A stretch of 64,000 nt of DNA from Flavobacteriaceae bacterium (GTDB lineage Bacteria; Bacteroidota; Bacteroidia; UKL13-3), in the NCBI GenBank assembly GCA_009693575.1, contig SHWZ01000001.1:26095-90094 (forward strand), given 5' to 3'. Below the pieces are notes generated by a model, which saw only the letters and a program-made list of their open reading frames with translations, was not told where the DNA came from and ran no database searches. Below are positions 5,546 to 54,500 of this stretch, piece after piece. Made by a program: the position numbers and the translations under genes. Positions within the stretch are counted from its first letter, which is position 1. Every line of letters starts with the position of its first letter.

Positions 5546-5564
5546 AAATCATTTAACAAAAAAA

Positions 5565-6218
5565 ATGGAGCAATCCTATCAAAAACTAATAACAGGCAAC
5601 AGGATTTATGCAGAAACAAAATTGTTTCAGGATCCTGATTACTTTAACAAATTATCAAAAGGACAAAAGCCTAACTACCTCTGGATTGGATGCAGCGACA
5701 GCCGTGTGCCAGCCAACGAAATAACAAGCACTAAGAGCGGCGAAATATTCGTACACCGCAACATAGCCAATCTGGTTGTGCATACCGATTCAAATATGCT
5801 AAGTGTATTGGAATATGCCGTGAATGTGTTGAAAGTAGAACACATTATTGTATGTGGCCACTACGGTTGTGGGGGCGTTCATGCATCTATGACTAATACT
5901 TTTCACGGCTTCGTTGACAACTGGTTGAGGCATATCAAAGACGTATATCATCACAATGAAGTAGAGTTGAAGGCTATTGAAGACCATGAAGAAAGAGCAA
6001 ATAGACTTACGGAAATGAACGTGATATCACAAGTGCGAAATTTGGCCAAGACTATCATTGTGCAGCAGGCCTGGGATGAAAGGGAACTGCACCTACATGG
6101 CTGGGTATATGGTCTGCACAACGGGCTGGTAAAGGATTTGGCAGTCATACATAATCATCAGGAAGATATTGACCCGATATATCAATACAATATAAGCAAG
6201 GTAACTGCGAACATTTGA
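5565..6218 (+). CDS. Beta-class carbonic anhydrase (cytoplasmic)
   Basis: 217 aa. CSDSRV (Cys43/Asp45/Arg47) and HYGCGG zinc-ligand motifs. No signal peptide. Starts 19 nt after the SulP stop. Confidence 0.85.
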   Translation: MEQSYQKLITGNRIYAETKLFQDPDYFNKLSKGQKPNYLWIGCSDSRVPANEITSTKSGEIFVHRNIANLVVHTDSNMLSVLEYAVNVLKVEHIIVCGHYGCGGVHASMTNTFHGFVDNWLRHIKDVYHHNEVELKAIEDHEERANRLTEMNVISQVRNLAKTIIVQQAWDERELHLHGWVYGLHNGLVKDLAVIHNHQEDIDPIYQYNISKVTANI

Positions 6219-8752: not shown

Positions 8753-8761
8753 ACAACATCC

Positions 8762-10630
8762 ATGTCAGAACTATTACAACTATTTATTTGGATTCCATTT
8801 GTTGGGTTACTTGTTGGCTTTTTTGTTCCAAGCAAAAACGAACGAATTATTTCGGGTATTGCTATTGCAAACTTGAGTGTTTATTTATTAGGCTTGGTTG
8901 CATTTCTTGTTTATTGGACCCTGAACGACTTCCCGGTTCTCGACAGAAAACATATTGTGCTCTTTGAAACCGACAATATGGCGTTTTTCATTGATTATTA
9001 CTTCGACAAGTTGACCGCTGTATTTTCTGTGGTTGGTGCTTTCGTCGCTTTATTGGTAAACATCTTTAGCCGCTACTATATTCACCGCGACGAAGGCTTC
9101 AAACGGTTTTTTAGCACCATAATGCTTTTCTTCCTGGGCTATAATATTATGGTTTTTTCCGGCAATTTTGAAACATTCTTTGTCGGCTGGGAAATATTGG
9201 GAATATGTTCTTTCTTGCTCATTGCCTTTTACAGGGACAGGTATTTGCCTGTAAAAAACAGCCTGAAAGTTATATCCATTTATCGTGTTGGTGATATATG
9301 CCTCATGCTTGCCATGTGGATGAGCCACCACCTTTGGCACCAAAACATCACCTTCCTGAAACTGAACGATGCGAACTTGGTTACGGAACATTTGCAAGCC
9401 AATGGCGGGTATCCTGTATTCATAGCTGCAATGTTTCTGATAGCCGCTGCTGTCAAGTCTGCACAGTTGCCTTTCTCAAGTTGGCTGCCCCGTGCCATGG
9501 AAGGTCCAACTACCTCCAGTGCTATATTTTACGGTTCACTTTCTGTACATCTAGGTGTCTTCCTTTTGCTGCGAACCTATCCTTATTGGGAAAGCATGGC
9601 AGCAATTAAGACTTCCGTCATTGTTCTCGGAATTGTTACAAGCCTTGTCGCCAATGGTATTGCAAGGGTTCAGTCGTCAGTGAAGGTACAGATTGCCTAT
9701 TCGTCCATAGCCCAAATAGGGCTGATGTTCATAGAAGTTGGATTGGATTTTCATATACTTGCCTTGGTGCATTTTGCTGGCAATGCTTTCCTGCGAACCT
9801 ATCAATTGCTGGTATCTCCATCGGTGATGAGCTACCTCATCCATAACATGGTTTTTAATTTTGTTCCGAAGAACCAAAGCAATGTAAACTCCATTTATGG
9901 CAAGTTAAAAAATTCCATATATATGCTTTCCATCAAGGAATGGAACTTGGATTTCTTGCTTCAAAAATTTCTTTGGAATCCATTCAAATGGGCTGGCAGG
10001 CAGTTGAACTTCCTAACTTCAAGAACATTTGCATTCTTGTTTGTTACAATCATTATCGTACTTCTGTATTTTTACTTTAGCCCTGAAATACCAGAAGTAA
10101 TTGTAACATTTTCACCGATGCTTTTCTCTCTATTCGGATTGTTGTTTGTCCTGCGTGCATTTGTAGAAAAAGCGAATGCCTTGACCGCTTGGAGCCTTTT
10201 GCTAGCTGGACAGGTTTGCATTACACTTTCGGTTGCACTACTCAATCCAAAGTTTGGATTAGGTCAAGTTTCCATTTACCTCAGCGGCATCTTACTCTCT
10301 TCGCTTTTGGGCTACTATGTATTGTTAAAAATAAGGAAAGTTGACAACGATATTAGTCTCAATCGCTTTCATGGATATGTATATGAACAACCTAAATTGG
10401 GTTTCTTATTCCTGCTGTCCTGTCTTGGTTTTGTAGCATTGCCACTCACCCCTGCTTTTGTAGGAATTGATATTCTATTCAGTCAAATATTCAAACACGA
10501 AATGGGTATTATTATTTGTACATCATGTAGCTTTTTGGTCATGGAAATATCGGTGCTTCGCATATACGCCCGCATTTTTATGGGGCAAAGCAAACGGACT
10601 GACCATGCGATGGCTTATCGGTCGTCGTAA
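8762..10630 (+). CDS. dabB: DabB, NuoL/MrpA/ND5-like proton-pumping membrane subunit (DAB complex)
   Basis: 622 aa with many TM helices. Complex I antiporter-like (PF00361-type) core reads ...AMEGPTTSSAIFYGSLSVHLGVFLLLR... Immediately downstream of dabA. Confidence 0.8.
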   Translation: MSELLQLFIWIPFVGLLVGFFVPSKNERIISGIAIANLSVYLLGLVAFLVYWTLNDFPVLDRKHIVLFETDNMAFFIDYYFDKLTAVFSVVGAFVALLVNIFSRYYIHRDEGFKRFFSTIMLFFLGYNIMVFSGNFETFFVGWEILGICSFLLIAFYRDRYLPVKNSLKVISIYRVGDICLMLAMWMSHHLWHQNITFLKLNDANLVTEHLQANGGYPVFIAAMFLIAAAVKSAQLPFSSWLPRAMEGPTTSSAIFYGSLSVHLGVFLLLRTYPYWESMAAIKTSVIVLGIVTSLVANGIARVQSSVKVQIAYSSIAQIGLMFIEVGLDFHILALVHFAGNAFLRTYQLLVSPSVMSYLIHNMVFNFVPKNQSNVNSIYGKLKNSIYMLSIKEWNLDFLLQKFLWNPFKWAGRQLNFLTSRTFAFLFVTIIIVLLYFYFSPEIPEVIVTFSPMLFSLFGLLFVLRAFVEKANALTAWSLLLAGQVCITLSVALLNPKFGLGQVSIYLSGILLSSLLGYYVLLKIRKVDNDISLNRFHGYVYEQPKLGFLFLLSCLGFVALPLTPAFVGIDILFSQIFKHEMGIIICTSCSFLVMEISVLRIYARIFMGQSKRTDHAMAYRSS

Positions 10631-18743: not shown

Positions 18744-20636
18744 TCACACCACCTTAAACTCTGTCCTTCTGTTTTTATGGCGGCCTTCATCAGTGTTGTT
18801 GTCGGCTACAGGCTTAGTATCGCCATAGCCTTTGTGACTGAGGCGGGCTGCTTCTATTCCCTGTTTTACAAGATAGTCATACACGGCCTTTGCCCTGTTT
18901 TGAGATAGAAGTTGGTTCTCCTGTTTTTTGCCTACATTATCGGTGTGTCCACTCAGTTCAATCTTCAGTTTTGGGTTTTGTTTCAATAAGGTTACCAGTT
19001 TGTCCAGTTCTATATTCGATTCTCTTTTCAGGTCAAACTTGGCGGTCTCAAAAAATACATTTTTCAGTATTACAGTACCGCCGGGTACTATTTTTTTCAA
19101 GGGTATCTCCTGTTTGATTGGTTTGTTCGGGAGTGTTTGTCCGAAAGAATAATTTTCGGAGAAAAATAGATAACCATCGTTGCCAACATTGAAGGCATAA
19201 TTGACTCCAGTTCTGAGGCAAGCCATCATCATCCCTTTGCTGTTACACATTGTTTGGTATTCGGTCTTCCCAGTTTCCAAATTAATAAGTTCCACATCGG
19301 CTTCCAATGGTTGTTTTGTATCCACATCATATACCAGCCCTGCCACGTAAGTAGTTTGTACTGGACGTTTGCTTTCAGGCATTTTGAATGTCCAAAGATC
19401 CCAATCCCCAAATCCTCCTTTGATATATCCACTTGTTAAGATTGCATCAACTCCATTTGCAGCAACACACAATGCCATTTCATCTTCATGGGTGTTTATA
19501 GGATAGCCCATATTTTCTGCTTCTGACCAAGAGCCATCTTTTTGCAACCTGCTTAGAAAAATATCGGACTTCCCCATCCCTAAATGACCTGTGCTGCTAA
19601 AATAAAGTGTTTGCCCATCGGGATGAATAAAAGGAGCTTCTTCATTTCCTGAACTGTTCACCTTCGGCCCTAAGTTCACGGGCTTCCCCCAGTGTCCGCC
19701 AGCCAGTGTACTTTTCCAGATGTCGATACCTCCAAGTCCACCGGGCATTCCACTTAAAAAATAGAGCGTGCGTCCGTCAGCCGAAATACATGGCTGCGAT
19801 TCCCAAGACTTTGAATTGATTGGATACCCAACGTTCACAGGCTTGTTCCAGGCCTCCCCATTAAAGGCTGCAAACCATATATCATTGTCATTGTTTGGTG
19901 GCGGGTTGAATTTACAGAAAAATACAAAATACCCATCAGCAGTAAAGCTTGGATAGCTTTCCTTTTCAGGGGTGTTTAGTGGTGTCCCTGCATTCTTAGC
20001 TACCCCCCAACTTCCATCAGGATTTCGTTTGGCTATCATAAATTCCTCGTCTCCACGGCTTTCTTGCCTATCGTATATCAGGGTCTTTCCATCTACTGTT
20101 ATACTAGCAAAATATTCCCTATTACTGCTGTTAATTCCAGGCCCCATATTTACTGGTTCGAAAGTCTGAGGTTGTTTCAATTGCTGAATCCCAAACTCAG
20201 CTATCTGCTGAATCCTTTTAGCTTCTTCAGTTGTGCGTGGAGAAAGCTTAAAGGCAAGAAAATGGTCAATATTTTCTTTGGCAATCAGATAGTTTCCAGA
20301 TTCAAGTGCGAGGTGTGCCAATCCATAATAAGCTTGCTGCACTTCCTTACTTATTGATAGTACTTTGGCATATACTTCTATCGCTTTCTCTGGCTGTCTA
20401 GTTTTTTCGTAAAGTTCTCCAGTCAGCATATATGCATCCACAAAGTTTGGGTCTTTTTCTAAAACCTCCACTAGTAACTTCAATGCTCCCTCAGCATCAC
20501 GTTGTTGATATTTATTAAGAGCCTCATTAAATAGCTTCTCGGCTTTCTTGTTGCTAGTGCCAATCCCGTTTTTTGGCTGACTCACCGCACACGATGTTAT
20601 CAGAAATGGTAGCAGAAGTAGTAGTATTTTTTTCAC
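18744..20636 (-). CDS. OmpA family protein with N-terminal TPR repeats and PD40/TolB-like beta-propeller repeats
   Basis: Signal/lipoprotein N-terminus MKKILLLLLPFLITSCA. TPR motifs, WD40-like PD40 repeats (TLYFSS..., DGRTLYFLSG), and a C-terminal OmpA peptidoglycan-binding domain (LSGHTDNVGKKQENQLLSQNRAKAVYDYLVKQGI...GYGDTKP). Confidence 0.8.
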   Translation of the reverse strand: MKKILLLLLPFLITSCAVSQPKNGIGTSNKKAEKLFNEALNKYQQRDAEGALKLLVEVLEKDPNFVDAYMLTGELYEKTRQPEKAIEVYAKVLSISKEVQQAYYGLAHLALESGNYLIAKENIDHFLAFKLSPRTTEEAKRIQQIAEFGIQQLKQPQTFEPVNMGPGINSSNREYFASITVDGKTLIYDRQESRGDEEFMIAKRNPDGSWGVAKNAGTPLNTPEKESYPSFTADGYFVFFCKFNPPPNNDNDIWFAAFNGEAWNKPVNVGYPINSKSWESQPCISADGRTLYFLSGMPGGLGGIDIWKSTLAGGHWGKPVNLGPKVNSSGNEEAPFIHPDGQTLYFSSTGHLGMGKSDIFLSRLQKDGSWSEAENMGYPINTHEDEMALCVAANGVDAILTSGYIKGGFGDWDLWTFKMPESKRPVQTTYVAGLVYDVDTKQPLEADVELINLETGKTEYQTMCNSKGMMMACLRTGVNYAFNVGNDGYLFFSENYSFGQTLPNKPIKQEIPLKKIVPGGTVILKNVFFETAKFDLKRESNIELDKLVTLLKQNPKLKIELSGHTDNVGKKQENQLLSQNRAKAVYDYLVKQGIEAARLSHKGYGDTKPVADNNTDEGRHKNRRTEFKVV

Positions 20637-25725: not shown

Positions 25726-26508
25726 TTATATTTCAATTTCGCCTTCAAAAATAAACTCGGCAGGTCCTTCTAAAACTATTGTACTGTACTGGCCTTCTTT
25801 GCAGGTGAAATGGACTTTTAATGAACCGCCGAGTGTATCGACAAGGATCACAAAATTTCCGTTTGATTTTATGTTTTTAGCATGGTGGGCAATTGCTGCA
25901 GCTGTGACACCAGTGCCGCAAGACAAGGTTTCATCTTCCACACCGCGTTCGTAGGTGCGAACATATATTCCGTTAGAAGTTTGCCCAACAAAATTCACAT
26001 TTATTCCTTCGGTTTTGTAGGTATCGTTGTTACGAATATTTCTTCCTTCGGTTTTTACATCCTCAGATTGAATGGCATCCACAAACAATACATAATGTGG
26101 TGAGCCAGTATTCAAAATAAATACATCTTCCTCTATTAAGATGTTAGAGACATTGTTCATACCTAGCTGCACGTTTCCATTTCTGAGCTTTGCACGGTGA
26201 CTTCCATCGGTTGCCACAAAATTGCATAAGCCGTCCACTACTTTCATTTCATTTGCAAATTTCACTATACACCGTCCTCCATTCCCACACATGCTGCTCA
26301 GTTTTCCATCGGCATTATAATATACCATTTTGAAGTCTGCACCACGGGCATCCTCCAGTAGCATCATCCCATCGGCCCCTACCCCGAAGCGGCGGTCGCA
26401 TATTTTTTTTATCTGAGCTGCCGTTAGCTTCCCTACCTCACCATTGCGGTTGTCGAGTATCACAAAGTCGTTGCCTGTGCCTTGGTATTTGTAGAATTTT
26501 AGTTTCAT
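25726..26508 (-). CDS. dapF: Diaminopimelate epimerase
   Basis: MKLKFYKYQGTGNDFVILD N-terminus. Both catalytic Cys motifs present (CGNGGRC and SCGTG). Confidence 0.9.
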   Translation of the reverse strand: MKLKFYKYQGTGNDFVILDNRNGEVGKLTAAQIKKICDRRFGVGADGMMLLEDARGADFKMVYYNADGKLSSMCGNGGRCIVKFANEMKVVDGLCNFVATDGSHRAKLRNGNVQLGMNNVSNILIEEDVFILNTGSPHYVLFVDAIQSEDVKTEGRNIRNNDTYKTEGINVNFVGQTSNGIYVRTYERGVEDETLSCGTGVTAAAIAHHAKNIKSNGNFVILVDTLGGSLKVHFTCKEGQYSTIVLEGPAEFIFEGEIEI

Positions 26509-27473
26509 TCGCTAATAAGTAATTGAATAATTCGTTTGTCAGTTTCGGGCCAATAACTGTTGTAGTGGTCTTCTTTTGCAAGTAGAAAAACCTGTTCATT
26601 GATCACTAAATATAGGTTTTCTTTGTAATATTTGAACTTTGCTTTATTGGGCTGTACCACCCCGAAAAGTTGTACTTTTTTACCATTATACCTGTAGCCC
26701 CTGTAGTTTATTGGAGATTTCCATATTTCCACTTGCAAGGGTTTCATTACATCCGACTTTTTATACGATTGAGTCTTCTCTGGGGATGAAATCTTTGTAT
26801 CCTTTTTCTTGGCAGTATATCCATTTGCACTTGCAGGTTTTTGCTCAGCGTCCATCATGGCCAAATCTTCCAATATCAAGGCTGTAAATGTGGTATCAAG
26901 GAGAAGGTAGTCTTCCTGCACTTTGAATTCATCAGCTGCTTTGCCATATTCCATTACATCCGATTGAGTCAAAGCAGGCGTTTGTTGATTTTCGGGTGCT
27001 GTTGGCCGAGTAATTTCCATTTCTTGTTTGGCCAACAGTTCATCTTCAGTCATATCACTTTCAGACAATTGGTTTGAAGTGACGCCGGTTTGTGGTGGTG
27101 TTGCAGGCAGTCCATTGGCTGAAGCTGGGTCATTCATTGTTTGTTCTTTCACTTTAGCTGACTCCGTTTCCATTTTTGGCTTTTCCTTTTTAAGATAATG
27201 ATAAGCCAGCTCCGGTTTAGGGAAATAAAACTCAACCATGGCCCATGAAACTGCCAGCAGAATGACAGAAGCTGCGGCACTGTATATAAAAATACTCTGC
27301 CACATTCCCAACTTTTTGTCGCGGGGGGCATTCTTCCGCAAATAATCACGAAGCTCTAGTTCCCGTTGCTGCTTGATGATCTGTATGGCCAGCTTTCGTA
27401 ATGAAAAAGCTTCAGCCAATTCTGTATCCACAGTAAGCTTGTGTTCAAACAATCCCTTGTCAAACTGGCCCAT
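26505..27473 (-). CDS. Hypothetical membrane-anchored protein, putative anti-sigma factor
   Basis: Directly downstream of the ECF sigma gene; start overlaps dapF by 4 nt. Single TM helix WQSIFIYSAAASVILLAVSWAMV, then a low-complexity Thr/Pro/Gln-rich linker and a C-terminal domain. Confidence 0.4.
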   Translation of the reverse strand: MGQFDKGLFEHKLTVDTELAEAFSLRKLAIQIIKQQRELELRDYLRKNAPRDKKLGMWQSIFIYSAAASVILLAVSWAMVEFYFPKPELAYHYLKKEKPKMETESAKVKEQTMNDPASANGLPATPPQTGVTSNQLSESDMTEDELLAKQEMEITRPTAPENQQTPALTQSDVMEYGKAADEFKVQEDYLLLDTTFTALILEDLAMMDAEQKPASANGYTAKKKDTKISSPEKTQSYKKSDVMKPLQVEIWKSPINYRGYRYNGKKVQLFGVVQPNKAKFKYYKENLYLVINEQVFLLAKEDHYNSYWPETDKRIIQLLISE

Positions 27474-27539: not shown

Positions 27540-28103
27540 TTAAAGAAGGTCTTGTTTGGTATATTTGGCTTTCACTATTGCTTCCAGTTTTTTCATACAC
27601 TGATATTTTTTGGCCTTGGCCGTATCTGAGTTGGCAAAATCCATAAGTTTGGCTATCTTATCCATGGCGAATCCATCAAAATAAAAATATCCCAACAGTT
27701 GTTTGCAGGTTTGGCCAATTTCGTCCATGCAGACTCGCACCAGTTTCATGTCCATCCGTTCACCATGTTCTTCCACTTGCACGGTTAGTTTACTGTCATC
27801 ATCCATCAGCACCAGGCGTCCATTCTTGCGAAGTCTTGCCAGCCAAAGGTTTCTAGCTACAGCATATACAAAGGTTGTGAGCTTGGCCGAAAGCTTGAAC
27901 TCGGGTTCAATCACTTTTTGCCAAGTGATAATGAGGGATTCTTGTAGCATGTCTTCCGCGTCCATCTCGTTACCCTGGTTTTTCAATATTAGGTTCCGAA
28001 CGCTTTCTTTGCTCATTTTGTACAACCGCAACAAAGCCGCCTGCCGTCCTGAGCGTATCATGCTGATAAGCTCGTCGTCGCTTAGCTGTTTGTTGTCAAT
28101 CAT
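27540..28103 (-). CDS. RNA polymerase sigma-70 family ECF-type sigma factor
   Basis: 187 aa. Region 2 (ESVRNLILKNQGNEMDAEDMLQESLIITWQKV) and region 4 HTH (DGFAMDKIAKLMDFANSDTAKAKKYQCMKKL). Confidence 0.75.
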   Translation of the reverse strand: MIDNKQLSDDELISMIRSGRQAALLRLYKMSKESVRNLILKNQGNEMDAEDMLQESLIITWQKVIEPEFKLSAKLTTFVYAVARNLWLARLRKNGRLVLMDDDSKLTVQVEEHGERMDMKLVRVCMDEIGQTCKQLLGYFYFDGFAMDKIAKLMDFANSDTAKAKKYQCMKKLEAIVKAKYTKQDLL

Positions 28104-30323: not shown

Positions 30324-30823
30324 TTTCATTTTTATTCACTTATAAAAGTGGTCGACAAATATTGCATGACATTTTTTTTTGCATTTTGAATAAGTTTTTT
30401 TTTTTTTTTCAGTATAAGTATACAAATTTATCCACACACTTTTTGTAATTTACTTCTAATTTATTTTTTTAAATATATAATTTAAATTCAAGGTTGATAA
30501 TTGCATGTTCTTTTTTCTATTACTTTACCACACTTTCTGTTGATAGCAGTAAAATCAATTGTTTTCATCCGTTGTATATTCAAATTTATTTTGTTTGGCG
30601 TATAAAATATTCAAAGTATATCCAACATTTTTGAGGTTGAATGTATTTTGTTTTTGCTTTTTTGTGGTACTTTTTTTTGTGTGGATAAGTTAAACCATTT
30701 TTCTATACATATAACCAACGATGGTAAAAAGTAGTTTTTATTTGCATCGTGATTCTGAGGCACTCCAAAATAAAAATGCACGGAGCACACAACTAAAAAA
30801 CTAAACCTTAAACAAAAACAACA

Positions 30824-31444
30824 ATGGCAAAATCAACCAAACCTGCAGCTAAAAAAGCTGCACCAAAGAAAGCCGCTGCTAAACCTGCAGCTAAGAAAGC
30901 TGCTCCAAAGAAAGCTGCAGCTAAGAAAGCCGCTCCAAAGAAAGCCGCTGCTAAGAAAGCCGCTCCAAAGAAAGCCGCTCCAAAGAAAGCCGCTGCTAAA
31001 AAGGCCGCTCCAAGAAAAGCTGCTGGTAAGCCAGCTGCTAAGAAAGCTGCTCCAAAGAAAGCTGCCTCTAAACCAGCTGCAAAAAAGGCCGCCGCCAAAA
31101 AACCAGCTGCTAAAAAAGCAGCCGGTGGAGCCAAAAAGGCTGCAAAGAAACCTGCTGCCAAAAAAGCAAAGCCTGCCCGAAAAGCAAAGCCTGCTCGAAA
31201 AGCTCCACAAACTTCTGGTTCAGGCCCACGCCCTGGTAGTTTAGGTTCTCGCATCTTGGGTGCAATCAAAACCGCAGGTAAAAGGCTTTCTTCAAGTGAG
31301 CTTGCCGATAAATTAGCTACACCACAAAAAAGTGCTGCTAAACTTAAACCGTATCTCAATCTCCAACTGGTGAATATGAAAAAACGCGGTTATGTGACCG
31401 CTTTGAGAAACGGGCGTAAGTACATGTACGGAGCTGGCAAATGA
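30824..31444 (+). CDS. Histone H1-like basic protein with KAAPKKAAAK tandem repeats and a non-repetitive C-terminal domain
   Basis: 206 aa. About 125 aa of AAKKAAPKK-type repeats, then a unique basic 70-aa C-terminus (ILGAIKTAGKRLSSSELADKLA...KRGYVTALRNGRKYMYGAGK). Preceded by a 490-bp AT-rich region. Confidence 0.7.
   Translation: MAKSTKPAAKKAAPKKAAAKPAAKKAAPKKAAAKKAAPKKAAAKKAAPKKAAPKKAAAKKAAPRKAAGKPAAKKAAPKKAASKPAAKKAAAKKPAAKKAAGGAKKAAKKPAAKKAKPARKAKPARKAPQTSGSGPRPGSLGSRILGAIKTAGKRLSSSELADKLATPQKSAAKLKPYLNLQLVNMKKRGYVTALRNGRKYMYGAGK
30840..31200. repeat. Coding tandem repeat (15/30-nt period, AAG-GCN-GCT-CCA-AAG units) inside the H1-like gene
   Basis: aagaaagccgctccaaagaaagccgctgctaag is repeated many times. 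It generates a mirror-image spurious ORF on the minus strand (30808..31359, AAFLAA repeats). Confidence 0.7.
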
Positions 31445-31465: not shown

Positions 31466-31493
31466 AGGCAGGTGAATAACCTGCCTTTTTTTT
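31466..31493. terminator. Bidirectional rho-independent terminator between convergent genes
   Basis: aaggcaggt-gaataa-cctgcc stem-loop followed by T8, with an A-run on the other side. Confidence 0.6.
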
Positions 31494-32895
31494 ATGGTTT
31501 CTTTGGAACAATATCAATCACAGAAAACTTCTCAACTACGACTTCTCCAATATGCCTGTTTTTAGATTTGCGAATATATTTCGCTTCGGTGTACAATACT
31601 GGCACAAGGCTACTGTTGCGAGCTTTTGAATACCATGCAGCATAAGAGGCAGCTTGTTCTAATACACTATTGGGTATAGGTTTTTTGCTTCCATTTTTTA
31701 TAAGCACATGCGACCCGGCGATACTTTGGGCAGCATGTAGCCATATATCATTTTTGTGTGCAAATCGAAATGAAAGTTCTTCGTTGCTCCCAGCATTTTT
31801 TCCAATGAAAATAAGAAAGCCATCTTTCTCGTATTTGTAGAATTTATCCTCAGCTACTATTTTTTTTCGTTCAGTTTTTCCGATTTTTTTTTTAAGAGCT
31901 AAATCTCCTAGTTGCATGTCTTGAAATTTAATAATTTCGGATCGAAGATGCTGCAATTTATTTTTTGCTGACAAGACTATTTCATTCAATTTTTCAATTT
32001 CCTTAATTCGATTTTTTGTTCTGCGGTAAAGTTTTTCTGCATGTTCCTGCGGTGATTCATTTTCTAAAAATTCAACTGTTATTAATGTGTCAGAATAGAA
32101 ATTATGTATGGTGGCTGAACTGCTTCCAGGCTTTATATCGTGTAGGTTAGCCATCACTACATCCGCAATTTCTTTGAGTGGTCTTTCATGTTGAAGTTGA
32201 TGCAGTCGATCACTTGATTTTGTTACTTGTTGCTCATTTTTTTTTATTTCCTTTTGCAAAACAGATAGTTCATTTTTTTTGTAGAGCTCGAACGAATCAA
32301 GTTTCAAAAATTCGCTTGCATACCTATCTAGTGCCTGTAAAATAGTTGGAGTTTCAAATAGGACCTCTTCATTTTGCATTACAACATATGTATCACCAAG
32401 GTCTGAAAAGTGCAACCCTTTTTGCTGGATACTTTTCTTTGCAACTGTGGTAAAATGTTTCGTTAAAAATGTCGTTGGGCTTGTGGCCAAATCTTTTTGG
32501 TGAACAGAAATAAATGTAGAAATTCCAATTTCATTTTGAAACAAGGAAATATTTCCATTGCTACCATAACATTTTATCCAAAGCATAAAACCATTTGAAA
32601 ATTTTAGAAAAAAGCTTCGTTCATTTTTAATCGAAATTACAGCTAACAGTTGCTGATTAAGCAACTCGGAAAATTGCGACAAGTCTTTTGTTTTTTTGTG
32701 CCCAAGTTTTGTCTGAAACAATGTGCCACCTCGTGCATTAAAAATAACCTGCAAGCAGAGAAGCTCTTTTTTATTTCTGAATACTAAAGAGATTTCATTT
32801 TTTGATTTGCTGAAACAATCGGCTAACCAATGTTTGCTGAATTTCTTTTCAATAAAATTGGCGAGAGCATAAATAGTGTCGGAGTGATTGTGCAC
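31492..32895 (-). CDS. NFACT-family protein (RqcH/FbpA-like, C-terminal DUF814/NFACT-R domain)
   Basis: 467 aa. Coiled-coil middle region. C-terminus NDIWLHAAQSIAGSHVLIKNG...VPVLYTEAKYIRK resembles the NFACT-R (DUF814) domain. Confidence 0.5.
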   Translation of the reverse strand: MHNHSDTIYALANFIEKKFSKHWLADCFSKSKNEISLVFRNKKELLCLQVIFNARGGTLFQTKLGHKKTKDLSQFSELLNQQLLAVISIKNERSFFLKFSNGFMLWIKCYGSNGNISLFQNEIGISTFISVHQKDLATSPTTFLTKHFTTVAKKSIQQKGLHFSDLGDTYVVMQNEEVLFETPTILQALDRYASEFLKLDSFELYKKNELSVLQKEIKKNEQQVTKSSDRLHQLQHERPLKEIADVVMANLHDIKPGSSSATIHNFYSDTLITVEFLENESPQEHAEKLYRRTKNRIKEIEKLNEIVLSAKNKLQHLRSEIIKFQDMQLGDLALKKKIGKTERKKIVAEDKFYKYEKDGFLIFIGKNAGSNEELSFRFAHKNDIWLHAAQSIAGSHVLIKNGSKKPIPNSVLEQAASYAAWYSKARNSSLVPVLYTEAKYIRKSKNRHIGEVVVEKFSVIDIVPKKP

Positions 32896-47142: not shown

Positions 47143-49554
47143 ATGAACAAAATTATTACCCTTGCCTTTGCTGCAATTGCAGGCATCTGTGCTCAGGCTC
47201 AGACCATCCCATTCCCGCTTATCAAGATTGACACCGCCCAGTATGTGAACAGTGGCAAGCTTTCAGTCGAAACAACCATCCCAGATTATGAAAATCCGGT
47301 GTTTCAAAATGCTAAATATGCTGATACTATTCAGATTGAAGGTGTTGTTACATTCGACCCCCACTATTATGGGTTGAGTACAACAAAGTCTAGAATTTCT
47401 GCTTTCATTCAAACAACAGACAGCCTAGGCTGGAACGGCATTGAAGTGATGTTTGATACTAGCTTTTTTGGGAAGGGAGGAAACAACCCTACCAAAGCTG
47501 CATTGCAGAACAGTACCAAATTTTATGACAATTTCCAAGTAGGGCTCACGGTTAAGGTAACAGGAGTCTTGGACAATTTTACAGGAGGTGGCAATACCAA
47601 AACCGGGCACACTCAAATGAAGATCTTGGATTACGAAACGGTGATAACTAATGCGAATACTACGACCATCAAACCAATTGTAACCACCATCGAACAGTTT
47701 ATGAAAAACAACGGCAGCGGTGGCCAAGTGTGGCAGCCAGAAACAGGTGAAAAATATGAAGGCGTGTATGTTGAACTGCGAAATGTGAAGGTGGTTGACA
47801 GAAGTCAAAGCAGCCTACGCTGGAACTGGAGCTTAGCAGATAATTTTGGTAATAAGATTAAAATACGCGATTACAGCGTGTGGATGCGTAACGATAAATA
47901 CTGTGATTGTGCCTTACCGAACGGGTATACATTTGCTCCACCACCGACCAACAGTTTCCTTGAACATGTGCGTGGTATTATTGTAGAAAGCGTGAGTAGT
48001 GCAGGTGTAGCAGAATATTATCTTGCACCGCTTGAAATCAACGACATCGGTTCAATTAATACGTATTCGCCACCACTTATTTCGTTTAGCGGTCGCAGCC
48101 CAAAGGTGCCAACCTCATCGCAAAATGTAACCATTTCGGCTAAGATAACGGATGATACTACTGTGGCTGACGCCTCATTGTATTATTCAGTGAACGGTGG
48201 TGGTTTTACTATGGTGAGTATGGCCAGTAGCGGCAGCAATTATGCTGCTGATATACCCATGCAGGCTAATGGCAGTTTTGTGAAATTTTATATCAAAGCG
48301 GTTGATAATAGCGGCTTCACCAGCTACGCCAACGACACCTTTGGTACTGGGCTTGACTATATGGTAATAGATAATGGTATCACACTGATAAGCGAAATAC
48401 AGCAAACTAATTACAGCAATGGAAACAGTTTTTGGGCTGGCGAAAGACTGCCGATGGATATAAAAGCTGTAGTAACAGCTACTGCAGTTTCGTCGGATGA
48501 TTTAGGTGAAGTTTCCATACAACAAGGCACTGGCCTTTGGAGCGGTATTTTGCTACGCAGCAACACAGGCGATGGACTGAATACTTTGAAACGTGGAGAT
48601 TCCATTTTGATTTCATCCGCATATATCCGCGAGAGTTTCAACTTCACTTACCTAGATTCGCTGAAAGGCAATTATTCGGTACTTTCTTCGGGCAATGCTT
48701 TACCAGGCTTCGTAACTCCGGCTTTTGATAGTGTGGCAAATAAAATATATCAATACACCGAACCCTACGAAGGCATGTTGGTGAAATGGGATAATGTGTT
48801 TGTGACCAGCCAAAATCCGGATGCCCCAAGCAATTTTGGGGAGTTTCTGGTAAATACTGACAGTGCATCAAGCTCAGGTTTCAGAGTTGACGACAAAAGC
48901 CTTGACCTCGGGATTACCTTCAATAAAGATTCTGTAGCATTGGGTCAAAAATTGATGTATATCCAAGGTGTATTTGGCTTTGCAAACGGGCAGTTCAAGT
49001 TGTGGCCACGCAACCGCATGGATATAGATTTGGCCTTGCAGCCTGATAAGATTGCACCCATTATTACCATGCTCGGAAGCTGGATGGACACGGTGATGGA
49101 AAACCAACATTACAACGACCCTGGTGCTACAGCTTTTGACAATAAAGATGGCGACATCACTTCTAAAATAATCCGCAATGGAACGGTGGACAGTACGAAA
49201 GTTGGGACATACTCACTATGCTACAATGTGAGTGACAATGCCGGCAATGCCGCGAACCAAGCTTGCCGCAATGTGTATGTGAAAAAGAATATAGGGATTT
49301 CGACTATGTTCAATATGATACAGACAGCGGTGAAGCTTTATCCAAACCCAGCCCAGAATTTGTTGAATATTGAGAACCAAGAAAAGGCTATCTTTATTCT
49401 TACTGATTTGAACGGGAAGACTATAAACATACTAGGCCAACTTAGTACTGGTATTCATGCAATCAATATTGCTGAACTTCCAAGTGGCCTTTATTTGCTT
49501 CAATCGCAAAATGAAGCGGGTAGGGCAGTAGTGAAGTTTTCTGTAATAAAGTAA
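47143..49554 (+). CDS. Secreted T9SS cargo protein with Ig-like (DUF5011/HYR-like) domain and C-terminal Por sorting domain
   Basis: Signal peptide MNKIITLAFAAIAGICAQA. DUF5011-like block DKIAPIITMLGS...ATAFDNKDGDIT...YSLCYNVSDNAGN. C-terminal CTD KLYPNPAQNLLNIE...LPSGLYLLQSQNEAGRAVVKFSVIK. Confidence 0.7.
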   Translation: MNKIITLAFAAIAGICAQAQTIPFPLIKIDTAQYVNSGKLSVETTIPDYENPVFQNAKYADTIQIEGVVTFDPHYYGLSTTKSRISAFIQTTDSLGWNGIEVMFDTSFFGKGGNNPTKAALQNSTKFYDNFQVGLTVKVTGVLDNFTGGGNTKTGHTQMKILDYETVITNANTTTIKPIVTTIEQFMKNNGSGGQVWQPETGEKYEGVYVELRNVKVVDRSQSSLRWNWSLADNFGNKIKIRDYSVWMRNDKYCDCALPNGYTFAPPPTNSFLEHVRGIIVESVSSAGVAEYYLAPLEINDIGSINTYSPPLISFSGRSPKVPTSSQNVTISAKITDDTTVADASLYYSVNGGGFTMVSMASSGSNYAADIPMQANGSFVKFYIKAVDNSGFTSYANDTFGTGLDYMVIDNGITLISEIQQTNYSNGNSFWAGERLPMDIKAVVTATAVSSDDLGEVSIQQGTGLWSGILLRSNTGDGLNTLKRGDSILISSAYIRESFNFTYLDSLKGNYSVLSSGNALPGFVTPAFDSVANKIYQYTEPYEGMLVKWDNVFVTSQNPDAPSNFGEFLVNTDSASSSGFRVDDKSLDLGITFNKDSVALGQKLMYIQGVFGFANGQFKLWPRNRMDIDLALQPDKIAPIITMLGSWMDTVMENQHYNDPGATAFDNKDGDITSKIIRNGTVDSTKVGTYSLCYNVSDNAGNAANQACRNVYVKKNIGISTMFNMIQTAVKLYPNPAQNLLNIENQEKAIFILTDLNGKTINILGQLSTGIHAINIAELPSGLYLLQSQNEAGRAVVKFSVIK

Positions 49555-51429: not shown

Positions 51430-51546
51430 GTGTGTTTTTTCGTTACATTTTCTAGTATTTTGATACTAAGTGCAACTAAAATTGCAATAAAGTGTCTGAT
51501 TGTAAAAATAATAGTACCTTTACCCCCAAAATTAAAACCTAATACA

Positions 51547-54500
51547 ATGAAGCAATTCTTTAGCTTAATCACGGCTCTCTTTTTTTTAGCCAATGGCTTG
51601 CAACACACAAGTGCTCAAGTTTATTGTATGCCAAGCTATACAGGACATGGCAATCAGTTTACTGGTGTGGCAAATGTGGCTGATGCTTTTTTTACCCATA
51701 TCCGCAACGTGAAATTTTCGGACATAAACCACACTACGGGAGCACCTACCTACTACGGAACTGTAGCCTACAAAGATTACACCTACGATACTGGATTTGT
51801 AGCTAAGGGTGGCACCTACATTCTCAGTATTTGGCTAGGCAATGGTGCCAACTCTCAGACTTGTGCTGTGTGGATCGACTATAATCAAAACCAAGTGTTC
51901 GAAGCCTCTGAACGGATTTTTTCGGCCTTTGACCCACAGAACCAAGGAAGTCACATTGTAGGCGGAAAAATAACTATACCCGCTGGGGCTAAAACAGGAA
52001 CAACTATGATGCGTGTGGGCACGAGGCTAAACAATGGAATGCCTGACCCTTGTGTGAACAATGACCCTAATGCCAGCACCAACAACTGGTCGCAGGATTT
52101 TCATGATTATACAATCCAAGTTCAAACTCCAACTACTCAAAGTTTCTTGAGCTGTACCACCAACCGCAACGTGTTTGACGAGGTGACAATGGGCAGCACC
52201 GACAACTTGATTATGGGGATAGAAGTGACCACCAACTCTGCCGGAACCCTAAGCCCATTGACAGCAGGCTATTTAACTTTCAACACATTAGGAACTACCA
52301 ATCCAACTGAACTTGCTGCTGCGAAACTGTATTACACTGGGCAAAATCCCAATTTCAATATCCTGAACCAAGTAGGTAGCACCAAGGCAAATCCCAATGG
52401 CACCTATACCATAAACGCAAATACTAAACTAAATGCTGGCACTAACTTCTTCTGGCTCGTGTACGATATCGCAGGTTCTGCAGTGATTGGTAACGACCTT
52501 TCGAGTCGCTGCCCAAAGATTCAAGTTTCAGGCATTGACAGATATCCTGTTGTGACAAGCCCTACCGGCGTAAGAAAAATTGGGTATTGTATATCTAAAG
52601 GTTCTCAAATGAATTTTATTGGAGTATGGGGGGTTAGGTTAGGAAGCATTGTCAACAATACATTCGGGCAACAATTTTCACCATATACTTACTATGCTAA
52701 TTTGCGAGACACCCTGGCACGCGGAACATCAGATACACTTACTGTTCAGGTTGGAAATGGTATTAATGCTGCAAAGCTGAAAGCGTGGATTGACTTCAAT
52801 AGGGATGGTGATTTTACGGATGCTGGGGAGCTTATTATGGATTCATTTAATTTCCAAAATAATCAAGCAAATACATCATACCCATTTATTAAAAAAGGAT
52901 TTTCAATTCCCGCCAACGCAGTGGTTGGCACTACCCGTATGCGTGTATCTACCCAGCAGTATAATGCAGCCAAAGCATTCACATCTTGCACGAATCCTAC
53001 TGACATAGGTGAGGTAGAAGATTATAGTATAATTATCAGTGCACCAGGCGAACCAGTTGCCGATTTTAAATCCTCTATTTCATGCTTGGGTGGTGTCACA
53101 GACTTTTATGATGGTAGTTATACTTTCGATACATTCCAAGTGAATAGTTGGGATTGGGATTTCGGAGAACCAGCATCGGGATCAAATACTTCATCACAGC
53201 AAAACCCATCGCATACCTACGCAGCTGGTGGGGTGTATAATGTAAAATTGAAGGTTGGCAGTAATAAAAGTGGCAGCACTCCGCAAAGCATTACCAAAGC
53301 TGTTTTGGTAGAAGAACCTGTTGCCGATTTTAATTATTATCCACCTGTGTTTCAGGTGCCAGTATCCTTTTATGATAATTCATCAGGTGGTTCTATGATG
53401 GCATGGAGCTGGGATTTTGGAGATTTGCAATCTGCATTTAACACCTCGGGCAAACCGAATCCTACACATACATTTGATACCGCTGGCACCTATACCGTTA
53501 CACTTATTGTAATCACATCAGGCGGTTGTCAGGATACCATTGTAAAGCAAGTGACCATTTTGCAACATCAAGTGCCGATTGCTGATTTCACCGCACATAC
53601 TTTCACCCCATACATTGGTGCAGCTAATGACCTCACTGACCAATCGGTAAACTCGCCCGGCAACTGGAAGTGGACTATTACTCCAAATAAATACAAGTAC
53701 TTGAATAGTACCAACGACAGCAGCCAAAACCCAACCGTATCGTTTGACTCACTCACTACTTATACTGTTTTTCTGGAAGCTAAAAATCCAGCAGGAAGCC
53801 ACACTGCCAGCAAAACATTTACAACTAAAAATTACACAGCACCAAAGACTTGGTTGGCTGCTACACCAACCGTAGCAAGGGTTGGCGAGCAAATTTCGTT
53901 TATTGATAGTAGCGACAATGATCCAACTGCTTGGGAATGGCAGTTTGGCGATACTACAGGTTTGATTCAATCTACTGTGCAGTACCCTACGCATAGTTAT
54001 AATAAAGCAGGAAGTTACACAGTGCAGCTAAAAGCAAGCAATCCTGCTGGTGTTGATAGTGCTAGTAGGGCCCAATACATCACAGTGACGAATGGATTTA
54101 ATATGTGCGATAATACTGCAACCACAACTGCTACCACCGCAGGATTGATATGCGATAGCGGTGGCCCAAATGCCAACTACAATGATGGGAGTAATTGTGG
54201 ATTCCTCATTAAGCCAAACTGTTCAGGTAAAATAGTTCTAGCATTTACGAAGTTTGATATGATGGCAAACGACCTACTAAAAGTGTATGATGGAGAGGAC
54301 GACATTACTGGCAAGCCACTTCACACAGGAAATGGGTTTACGGGTAATGCCATTCCTGGTACATTTGTTTGCACAAGTGGAGCAATATTTATTAAAGAAA
54401 TTACTGACGGAACGGGGAACAGTTCAGGCTTTGCTGCAAGTTGGACTGCATTTGTAAATCAAATTCCTAATCCTAAAATTCTAAATGACTCTGTATGGTA

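Follow-up and report, generated by a model that had tools for sequence, protein, structure and literature searches.

The window analysed here is a 64-kb stretch of DNA, and all positions refer to it. At the locus of interest, a gene for a histone H1-like protein follows an enoyl-CoA hydratase (ECH) gene and an AT-rich leader, and is itself followed by a convergent gene for an NFACT homologue (ribosome quality control); it does not form an operon with these neighbours. The comparison set consisted of four related metagenome/MAG loci from two evolutionarily distinct lineages, including L015, L017 and the divergent L016, and the gene order (ECH, leader, H1-like gene, convergent NFACT gene) is kept in these three. 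Scanning of species-representative genomes with the neighbouring NFACT protein returned only relatives of 26–44% identity, none of them syntenic, and therefore the lineage is absent from those genomes. The source is a poorly sampled lineage of Bacteroidota without a closed genome. The features of the locus are as follows.

30327..30823, unstranded: AT-rich non-coding leader, 497 bp, between the ECH gene (ends 30323) and the H1-like gene
30395..30409, plus strand: T15 homopolymer tract, different in every relative: T8GT7 (L015), T16 (L017), interrupted (L016)
30428..30436, plus strand: predicted DnaA box 1, perfect TTATCCACA, within a 35-nt block (30411-30445) invariant in all four relatives
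30457..30488, unstranded: pure A/T run of 32 nt, on the 3′ side of DnaA box 1 at a distance of 20 nt; would count as a candidate unwinding element only if the leader is an origin
30678..30823, plus strand: near-invariant block that spans DnaA box 2 and reaches the start codon, 80–100% identical to L016 in 25-nt windows
30680..30688, minus strand: predicted DnaA box 2, perfect TTATCCACA, heading a conserved run (30678-30758, L016)
30824..31444, plus strand: H1-like protein coding sequence, ATG start, 206 aa plus stop
30824..31213, plus strand: N-terminal AKP pentapeptide array, aa 1–130, 91% A+K+P, net charge +49
31214..31441, plus strand: Gly/Ser/Pro linker (aa 131–141) and basic C-terminal domain (aa 142–206), invariant, 0 non-synonymous differences from L016
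31459..31493, both strands: hairpin with a GC stem between T/A runs; bidirectional intrinsic terminator of this gene and the convergent NFACT gene

The terminator hairpin is kept in L016, in which an A-to-G change retains the pairing as G–U.

The repeat gene and its length variants

The first-pass annotation had proposed a translated Lys/Ala/Pro-repeat protein of the H1/Hc2 type, and the 206-aa ORF was indeed present where it had been placed. With 64 Ala, 56 Lys and 20 Pro residues, A+K+P make up 68% of the whole protein and 91% of residues 1–130, and the protein has a pI of 11.7; the annotated richness was real, although the figure given (about 60%) was too low. In the alignable segments of the array, 16 of 16 differences fell at third codon positions of the plus frame. 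Because the array substitutions are third-position, the length differences are in frame and the gene order is kept, we conclude that the H1-like gene is real and translated, and codon-level comparison shows it to be strongly constrained. It had been stated that the proposal would fall if the repeat region were unconserved or untranslated in homologues; we found the array both translated and kept in the relatives. Two minus-strand ORFs across the array (30808-31359 and 30833-31210) were rejected as repeat artefacts, given that the substitutions sit at plus-frame third positions. No paralogue of the gene was found in the 64-kb window.

Tandem Repeats Finder reported periods of 15, 42 and 18 bp over 30839-31203, with 14.5 copies of the 15-bp period. 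Among the relatives, protein length was 206, 205, 175 or 170 aa, corresponding to tails of 94–130 aa with net charges of +34 to +49. The length differences were 90, 18 and 15 bp and every indel was in frame, bearing out the repeat-number polymorphism that had been predicted. The longest exact repeat inside the array is only 32 nt and the length alleles also carry single-base differences; therefore the variants are real alleles, and assembly collapse is an unlikely source. Alignment of the relatives thus shows an array that changes in length by gain and loss of complete repeat units, in frame throughout.

We consider the tail H1/Hc2-like because of its 91% A+K+P content and the pI of 11.7, because its best matches are to Pfam HC2 (PF07382; 26.4 bits, E 8.6e-6, residues 6–127) and, in NCBIfam, to NF038053 (hist_H1_lk_Burk; 24.8 bits), and because like tails are fused to DNA- or nucleoid-associated domains. 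The repeat character claimed in the first-pass annotation was upheld. A closer likeness to H1 or Hc2 was not, since the HC2 and Burkholderia-type scores lie below the model cutoffs (40 and a curated 80, respectively) and the protein lacks a match to the linker-histone globular domain. Similar AKP tails were found fused to HU, SWIB, DksA, CarD, ParA and phasin domains, and they also occur on ribosomal proteins (L21, L22 and L30 homologues), RsfS, AhpC and phasins. Since the latter proteins carry such tails, the tail by itself is not proof of a nucleoid role; judged by these fusions, it is a promiscuous AKP module joined to many other domains. We infer that the array is disordered and binds DNA electrostatically.

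The AT-rich leader and its predicted DnaA boxes

The leader has a GC content of 25% compared with 42% for the window, and all of the lowest-GC 490-bp segments of the 64 kb fall within it. Nowhere in the window is the DNA richer in AT, as had been noted, but a single tract (T15) was found in place of the several T12–T15 tracts described; further T tracts are T9 (30372-30380) and T8 (30671-30678). The earlier observation that the leader has no ORF was effectively right: short ORFs of 20–59 aa occur, none is retained in L016, and a leader peptide or small ORF was rejected on this ground. Also rejected was a structured leader RNA or riboswitch (no Rfam match above noise, fold z-score −0.62, no covariation). 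The suggestion of a curved-DNA promoter found no support, as AA/TT periodicity at 10–11 bp, the mark of curvature by phased A-tracts, was at shuffle level (p 0.27–0.48).

Identity between the leader and its L016 counterpart is 79%, against ~53% at synonymous sites, which argues that the leader is functional. Several blocks are fully conserved, and conserved blocks besides the DnaA boxes lie at 30370-30390, 30531-30547, 30611-30632 and 30645-30663. The near-invariant block before the start codon (30678..30823) probably comprises the promoter and a 5′ UTR that is rich in A, lacks structure and has no Shine-Dalgarno sequence. A sigma-70 scan of the leader gave weak matches at background level only, and the Bacteroidota-type TAnnTTTG motif occurred at chance frequency in the window, with no plus-strand match in the leader.

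A perfect TTATCCACA occurs only twice in 64 kb, both times in the leader, in inverted orientation and 252 bp apart. The chance of at least two perfect boxes in the leader is ~1e-5 (2 of 200,000 shuffles). None of the other leader sites has exactly one mismatch; all have at least two. L015, L017 and the divergent L016 all have both predicted boxes unchanged, although these lie inside longer conserved blocks, so that the conservation is not specific to the 9-mers. These two perfect, conserved boxes were absent from the first-pass annotation. Judged from the predicted sites, the leader is most likely a DnaA-binding regulatory region.

Alternatively, the leader might be the chromosomal origin (oriC) or part of it, with DnaA binding the two boxes and weaker ones and opening the A/T run next to them. 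In that case, the H1-like gene would merely be origin-proximal, or would encode an origin-associated chromatin protein. We regard an origin as unlikely, and we view these two roles of the gene with the same doubt. The idea draws on the position of the only two perfect boxes of the 64 kb within its lowest-GC 500 bp, and on the 32-nt A/T run, which is the longest in the window (runner-up, 18 nt). The relative orientation of box 1 and the A/T run matches that of E. coli R1 and its unwinding element. Box 1 and the run are also compatible with a loose box–spacer–(NAN)n rule (PMC8287927), a trio rule that T-rich DNA satisfies trivially. Two further weak boxes are conserved (30538-30546, with 2 mismatches, and, within the block 30611-30632, the box-like TATCCAACA), and the cumulative GC skew reaches its minimum at 31367.

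However, only two boxes have at most one mismatch, whereas Ori-Finder-type criteria expect a cluster of at least three. The skew minimum follows gene orientation; placing a breakpoint at 30–33 kb in a GC3-skew model betters the fit by only ~2%, and within 64 kb skew and gene orientation are uninformative, being confounded by coding-strand skew. Left of the site, only ~52% of genes are co-oriented with the hypothetical fork, and dnaA, dnaN, gyrB, parAB and the other usual neighbours are all missing from the 64 kb. In L016 the A/T run is not pure, the region there having 25.5% GC. Finally, the H1-like gene needs the right third of the leader for its promoter and 5′ UTR. Taken as predicted binding sites, the DnaA boxes point to DnaA-linked control, and less likely to an origin.

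DnaA-box clusters are known both within oriC and away from it, and PMC2533591 describes DnaA-binding intergenic regions in B. subtilis. These regions, E. coli datA and DnaA-regulated promoters resemble the leader in having intergenic consensus boxes upstream of a gene. Several of the B. subtilis regions regulate the adjacent gene. In contrast to their DnaA-box clusters, the leader has only two strong boxes, inverted and 252 bp apart, and DnaA binding to it is a prediction. To our knowledge, a histone-like gene beside a DnaA-box region has not been described to date.

The C-terminal domain and readings of the protein

The basic, non-repetitive C-terminal segment quoted in the first-pass annotation is present. 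It is constrained and, as the evidence below suggests, probably folded. The annotated order also proved accurate: the domain (aa 142–206) follows the tail (aa 1–130), an inversion relative to eukaryotic H1. Comparison of the C-terminal 76 codons with L016 gave 26 synonymous and 0 non-synonymous differences (dS = 0.73, dN = 0). Across the available relatives, sequence comparison shows the C-terminal 65–76 residues to be without protein-level change. The NFACT protein next door is only 77% identical in L016, and therefore the C-terminal domain, with dN = 0 at a dS of 0.73, is functional.

The domain appears to be confined to its own lineage. An exhaustive phmmer search of 1.84 billion representative proteins recovered its own cluster plus two repeat-protein artefacts, and a local phmmer search of the 98 proteins retrieved, among them every AKP-tail protein, recovered its own cluster only. 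There was no match in a word-indexed search of 5.8 billion proteins, in a JGI metagenome scan with six back-translated peptides or in a tblastn search of plasmids and phages, and no meaningful match by sequence in the PDB. Sub-threshold Pfam matches were obtained to MarR_2 (E 0.01), HTH_IclR (0.035–0.049), HTH_20 (0.08–0.10) and Penicillinase_R (0.11–0.2, spanning residues 3–63). Four of the five weak matches (12–16 bits) are to winged-helix/HTH families and align in register, while in ten controls, shuffled or reversed, there was one unrelated match and no HTH. AlphaFold2 without an alignment, run on the full-length protein and on the domain alone, was uninformative (pLDDT 58–69, pTM 0.19–0.26, helices only), and Foldseek found 0 matches to the low-confidence model in the PDB. 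Given the in-register family matches, the C-terminal domain is probably a winged helix.

If the domain bound something other than DNA, the protein could be an adaptor and not a chromatin compactor, its AKP tail anchoring it non-specifically to the nucleoid or another polyanion and its C-terminal domain binding a cargo (a protein, a granule or polyphosphate). The PhaF/PhaM phasins and Pseudomonas AlgP are models for such an arrangement; of these, AlgP is H1-like and sets the spacing of polyphosphate granules (PMC9239181). Domains that do not bind DNA, among them phasin, ParA, AhpC and RsfS, carry AKP tails, and absolute conservation of the C-terminal domain would suit a specific protein–protein interface. 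Against this, the domain is itself strongly basic (pI 10.9) and its sole sequence leads are DNA-binding winged-helix families. Nor is a cargo candidate linked to the gene, as the neighbours are ECH and the convergent NFACT and do not form an operon with it. We therefore judge an adaptor role improbable.

The same weak matches would also fit a sequence-specific transcription factor, in which the winged helix reads an operator, possibly in its own conserved leader as autoregulation, and the basic tail only raises non-specific affinity or sliding. The families matched are repressors (MarR, IclR, ArsR-type HTH_20 and BlaI/MecI), and the leader has several conserved blocks besides the DnaA boxes. 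The repressor families that were weakly matched act as dimers. The domain, however, is only ~65 aa and comes without a dimerisation or ligand domain, most of the protein is a tail of 130 aa with a charge of +49, and the leader shows no clear palindromic operator. These points leave a dedicated regulator with little probability. An RNA- or ribosome-associated basic protein is very improbable: AKP tails do occur on L21, L22, L30 and RsfS homologues, there is a weak Pfam match to mitochondrial ribosomal protein L27 (E 0.018) and the adjacent gene is a ribosome-quality-control NFACT homologue, but the L27 match is one lysine-rich stretch and the NFACT gene is convergent and thus not co-transcribed. 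Most characterised proteins with such tails (Hc2, AlgP, HupB and PhaF) bind DNA.

Proposed function and related systems

The best explanation overall is that the product of the locus is a nucleoid-associated protein restricted to its lineage, an undersampled one within the Bacteroidota, with the leader as a DnaA-binding regulatory region (probability roughly 0.55). The array would act as a disordered polycationic tail that binds and condenses DNA, as do chlamydial Hc2 and, in eukaryotic H1, the C-terminal tail. The C-terminal winged-helix-type module would supply a further DNA contact, this one structured, by which a single molecule could dock and bridge or condense DNA. Transcription would start within the last ~150 bp of the leader, where a conserved promoter would precede an A-rich 5′ UTR, and would end at the hairpin terminator. 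The DnaA boxes may couple synthesis of a chromosome-coating protein to the state of replication initiation, or may titrate DnaA. Should DnaA bind the boxes, the locus would exemplify a nucleoid protein whose supply is tied to the initiation of replication; on the alternative view, what the boxes mark would be the origin of a lineage without a closed genome.

Other bacterial proteins share this two-part design. Pseudomonas AlgP, PhaF/PhaM and mycobacterial HupB are modular two-part proteins with AKP/H1-like tails, as here, and Streptomyces DdbA (H1-like plus DksA-like) and HupS likewise join the tail to an unrelated folded domain. The tail is interchangeable among many families (PMC3643593, PMC9239181). 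In contrast, the partner domain found here matches none of those in AlgP, PhaF/PhaM, DdbA, HupS or HupB.

Similarity to eukaryotic H1/H5 (PF00538) lies in the combination of a small basic domain, probably a winged helix, with a long disordered K/A/P tail. In H1/H5 the order is a short N-terminal tail, the globular domain and a long K/A/P C-terminal tail, whereas here the tail is N-terminal, the domain is C-terminal and there is no third region. Nucleosomes are not known from Bacteroidota. No match of the H1-like protein to PF00538 was found even at E ≤10, and BLASTP against the globular domains of GH5, H1.0 and H1.4 gave E ≥0.7, a result taken as a lead only. Linker-histone homology was rejected on sequence; the resemblance is one of design, not membership. 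The inverted domain order would have been arrived at independently of H1. H1 subtypes have an indel-prone tail and a highly conserved folded domain (PMC5400378), and the same pattern is seen here, where the tail is indel-prone and the C-terminal domain invariant. Summarising Kasinsky et al. 2001, PMC5400378 notes that bacteria have Lys/Ala-rich tails of the H1 type, which are considered older than the H1 globular domain.

A more specific proposal is that the protein is an independent bacterial linker-histone analogue (a winged helix with an inverted H1-type tail) whose gene is wired to DnaA through its promoter or abuts oriC. It is tentative, and we doubt that all of its parts will hold. If true, a tail plus a winged helix in a bacterium would mean that the design of a folded reader with a polycationic tail arose more than once, and would offer a simple system for asking what each half adds to DNA compaction. 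A DnaA-controlled promoter would then amount to replication-coupled ‘histone’ synthesis in a bacterium; were the gene instead to abut the origin of this deep, almost unsampled lineage of Bacteroidota, the protein might help to organise origin DNA.

Returning to the favoured nucleoid-associated protein, its closest counterparts by tail are chlamydial Hc2 (hctB; PF07382) and the Hc2-like proteins of Bordetella and Burkholderia (NF038053), which share a Lys/Ala/Pro pentapeptide array of similar size. Hc2 is not known to have a separate folded domain; unlike it, the H1-like protein carries the invariant, non-repetitive C-terminal domain of 65–76 aa. The host also differs, being a member of the Bacteroidota and not of the Chlamydiota (Hc2) or Betaproteobacteria (Burkholderia-type). 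Hc2 varies in length between 165 and 237 aa by in-frame gain and loss of repeats, a variation that stems from 36-aa repetitive elements (PMC2848022). In-frame variation is common to both proteins, with a range of 170–206 aa here, although the array in this case is built of 5-aa units (15-bp period). Through this polymorphism, naturally occurring alleles cover tail charges of +34 to +49, and strains could be typed by it in the way that hctB is used for Chlamydia.

A translated gene with a length-variable repeat array

The H1-like gene lies downstream of a leader and faces a convergent neighbour, and its product combines an Ala/Lys/Pro (AKP) array with a C-terminal domain.

Features of the H1-like gene and its flanks
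ends 30323: enoyl-CoA hydratase (ECH) gene, the upstream neighbour
30824-31444, + strand: H1-like coding sequence, ATG start, 206 aa
aa 131-141 of the product: Gly/Ser/Pro linker between array and C-terminal segment
31459-31493: GC-stem hairpin with T/A runs on both sides, found on both strands by the scan

The protein contains 64 Ala, 56 Lys and 20 Pro residues (pI 11.7), which together make up 68% of the whole and 91% of residues 1-130. Tandem Repeats Finder resolved the array (30839-31203) into 14.5 copies of a 15-bp unit with higher-order periods of 42 and 18 bp. The segment C-terminal to the linker is basic (pI 10.9) and free of repeats, and matches exactly the sequence quoted in the first-pass annotation. 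The start codon follows an A-rich stretch that lacks a Shine-Dalgarno sequence. Because the hairpin was found on both strands, it looks like a terminator common to the H1-like gene and the convergent downstream gene. The latter (31492-32895, − strand) encodes an NFACT/RqcH-type ribosome-quality-control homologue, which matched the NFACT_N model only distally (profile positions 276-421) and also matched NFACT-R_1.

We compared four related loci; for the H1-like gene, L018 supplies the last 47 codons only. The order ECH, ∼500-bp leader, H1-like gene and convergent NFACT gene was common to four of four. Over 10 kb, the DNA of L015 is 97.3% identical to that of the window; L017 and L018 are both from the same study, and the L017 leader equals that of L015 except in the poly-T tract. 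The divergent relative, L016, is from an NCBI metagenome-assembled genome (GCA_043755925.1), with an NFACT protein 77% identical to ours. An identical H1-like protein is encoded by a 140.7-kb metagenome contig from ENA. Sampling of the lineage is very sparse: among species-representative genomes, the NFACT protein retrieved only relatives of 26-44% identity, and among 5.8 billion proteins it gave one match at 99%, one at 77% and none above ∼39%. Beyond two close relatives, its nearest homologues share only ∼30% identity with it.

In the unambiguously alignable array segments, all 16 substitutions between the window and L016 fall at third codon positions, which shows that the plus frame of the H1-like gene is the translated one. 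The same pattern rules out the long antisense ORFs over the array. Products are 206 aa in the window, 205 aa in L016 (organised differently), 175 aa in L017 and 170 aa in L015. The arrays differ by indels of 90, 18 and 15 bp, which correspond to repeat units and are always in frame, so that the predicted length polymorphism was borne out, with four lengths; across alleles, the tail spans 94-130 aa and a net charge of +34 to +49. Collapse by the assembler is an unlikely source of these variants, since no exact internal repeat exceeds 32 nt and point changes, too, separate the alleles. In the last 76 codons, the window and L016 differ by 26 synonymous changes and no non-synonymous one (dS 0.73, dN 0); the C-terminal segment is under near-absolute constraint at the protein level. 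Third-position-only array substitutions, in-frame indels and a C-terminal dN of 0 are the opposite of the unconserved or untranslated array that the first-pass annotation had named as evidence against its reading. This comparison of relatives shows that the gene is translated and constrained, that its polycationic array varies and that its C-terminal domain is invariant.

Affinities of the tail and the C-terminal domain

The best family matches of the tail were Pfam HC2, at 26.4 bits against a cutoff of 40, and NCBIfam hist_H1_lk_Burk, at 24.8 bits against one of 80. The proposed likeness to H1 and Hc proteins is therefore kept as resemblance and not as membership, both scores being below cutoff; in membership tests for Hc2, the Burkholderia H1-like family and linker histones, the protein fell outside all three. 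In a full-length search of public proteins, AKP tails were also joined to SWIB, HU, DksA, CarD, ParA, phasin, RsfS, L21, L22, AhpC and Spx, and at least 12 unrelated partner domains occur in public data. One retrieved protein (P0062, from a eukaryote or a bacterium) carries a PF00538 linker-histone domain and an AKP tail with a repeat pattern almost identical to that in the window. The AKP tail is a generic, mobile polyanion-binding module, and the H1-like protein belongs to a known, broad class of bacterial proteins with an AKP tail plus another domain. Within this familiar class, the invariant orphan domain, the inverted H1-like design and the possible link to DnaA stand out.

No homologue of the C-terminal domain was found by word-indexed protein search, in the PDB by sequence, in JGI metagenomes, among plasmids and phages, or by local phmmer among the retrieved AKP-tail proteins, and exhaustive phmmer against 1.84 billion cluster representatives returned only its own cluster. 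The domain is a sequence orphan, new by sequence and confined to one thinly sampled lineage. Its only lead came from five sub-threshold Pfam matches, four of them to winged-helix families in a common register: MarR_2 (E 0.01), HTH_IclR, HTH_20 and Penicillinase_R (residues 3-63 of the 65-aa core). This signal is not due to composition, because nine shuffles of the domain and one reversal produced one unrelated match and none to HTH families. By eye, the domain end LNLQLVNMKKRGYVTALRNGRKYMY fits the BlaI/MecI-type recognition-helix-plus-wing pattern, L..L..KG......GR...Y, which offers a lead. AlphaFold2 without an alignment gave uninformative, low-confidence models (pLDDT 58-69, pTM 0.19-0.26), a Foldseek search against the PDB gave no matches, and no sequence relationship to the H1/H5 globular domain emerged. 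On balance, we consider a winged helix the probable fold, with modest confidence.

By analogy, we infer that the protein works like Hc2 and the H1 C-terminal tail. From what is established for Hc2, H1 tails, AlgP, HupB and PhaF, the array would be disordered and bind DNA electrostatically, neutralising its charge and condensing it, and tail length would set the charge delivered per molecule. More tentatively, a winged-helix C-terminal domain might provide a second, structured DNA contact, with which the protein could bridge or dock on DNA beyond merely coating it. Rival readings would make it an AlgP- or phasin-like adaptor, a specific regulator with a basic tail, or an RNA- or ribosome-binding protein. 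Hc2 (hctB) shares the strain-level length polymorphism (PMC2848022), and H1 subtypes likewise set an indel-prone tail against a conserved folded domain (PMC5400378). The order of eukaryotic H1 is inverted in the design seen here.

The leader and its DnaA boxes

The leader (30327-30823, 497 bp) is, as first described, the most AT-rich stretch of the window, with 25% GC against 42% overall; every 490-bp window of lowest GC in the 64 kb falls within it, and it holds no conserved ORF. T tracts are present (T15, T9 and T8), but only one falls in the T12-T15 range in which several had been reported. What was first described thus stands with minor corrections. The suggestion of curved DNA was not upheld in its simplest test, as AA/TT periodicity near 10.5 bp is no higher than in shuffles. 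An Rfam scan of the leader gave no match, and nothing pointed to a structured leader RNA (fold z = -0.62, covariation absent).

The leader is more than neutral filler: it shares 79% identity with that of L016, compared with ∼53% at synonymous sites of the adjacent gene. Runs at 30370-30390, 30411-30445, 30531-30547, 30611-30632 and 30645-30663 are fully conserved in L016, and conservation is almost complete between 30678 and the start codon. The poly-T tract (30395-30409) varies across loci (T15, T8GT7, T16, interrupted in L016), either as a slippage hot spot or as homopolymer sequencing or assembly noise. Two exact TAnnTTTG motifs, of the Bacteroidota -7 promoter type, lie on the minus strand (30423-30430 and 30581-30588) and point leftwards, so that the H1-like gene lies behind them. 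The motif at 30423-30430 adjoins DnaA box 1 and is kept in L016, and the motif count across the window is at chance level.

An inverted repeat, AATTTATCCACACA / TGTGTGGATAAGTT, led to two DnaA boxes overlooked at first reading.

Perfect DnaA boxes in the leader
30428-30436, + strand: box 1, TTATCCACA
30680-30688, − strand: box 2, TTATCCACA

No other perfect box occurs in the 64 kb (∼0.7 expected), and two or more arose in 2 of 200,000 shuffles of this length and composition. Both boxes and their flanks are identical in L016, so a conserved leader with two consensus DnaA boxes is shown by comparison. To our knowledge, conserved DnaA boxes have not been described as the context of such a gene. 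We prefer to read the leader as a putative DnaA-binding regulatory or titration site before the H1-like gene, and expression or local DnaA availability might, more speculatively, be linked to the two boxes. Several intergenic clusters of DnaA boxes of this kind are described in B. subtilis (PMC2533591).

That the leader is oriC is a live but less likely rival reading. In its favour, consensus boxes coincide with the lowest GC in the window, and a 32-nt pure A/T run (30457-30488), the longest in 64 kb (next, 18 nt), begins 20 nt 3′ of box 1, the two being oriented as R1 and the unwinding element are in E. coli. However, the run is not kept as a pure one in L016, and boxes with at most one mismatch number only two. 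The cumulative GC skew has its minimum at 31367, but this merely follows a block of minus-strand genes, and a GC3-skew regression on coding-strand versus replication effects, with its breakpoint at 30-33 kb, improves the fit by only ∼2%. Leftward genes are split about half per strand, origin-typical neighbours are absent and the 64 kb contain no replication genes. The box-spacer-(NAN)n rule (PMC8287927) is trivially satisfied in DNA so rich in T.

Other genes of the window

The window is a stretch of Bacteroidota chromosome with ordinary housekeeping genes. Type IX secretion sorting domains score above cutoff in two large proteins, one of them 1952 aa long with an M4-peptidase-like region; jointly with a PorE/CHU_0125-type OmpA protein, they assign the window to Bacteroidota. 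The genes at 3968-10630 (+ strand) form a probable inorganic-carbon uptake cluster.

Other features
47143-49554 and 51430-57288, + strand, and 18744-20636, − strand: type IX sorting-domain proteins and PorE/CHU_0125-type OmpA protein
3968-5545, + strand: SulP-family transporter, carbon-uptake cluster
5565-6218, + strand: beta-carbonic anhydrase, same cluster
6215-8752, + strand: DabA (Pfam E 5e-211)
8762-10630, + strand: NuoL-like DabB partner, same cluster
27540-28103, − strand: ECF-type sigma factor
26505-27473, − strand: 322-aa protein after the sigma factor gene, no Pfam match, hydrophobic TM-like stretch

The 322-aa protein is likely the anti-sigma partner of the ECF-type sigma factor.
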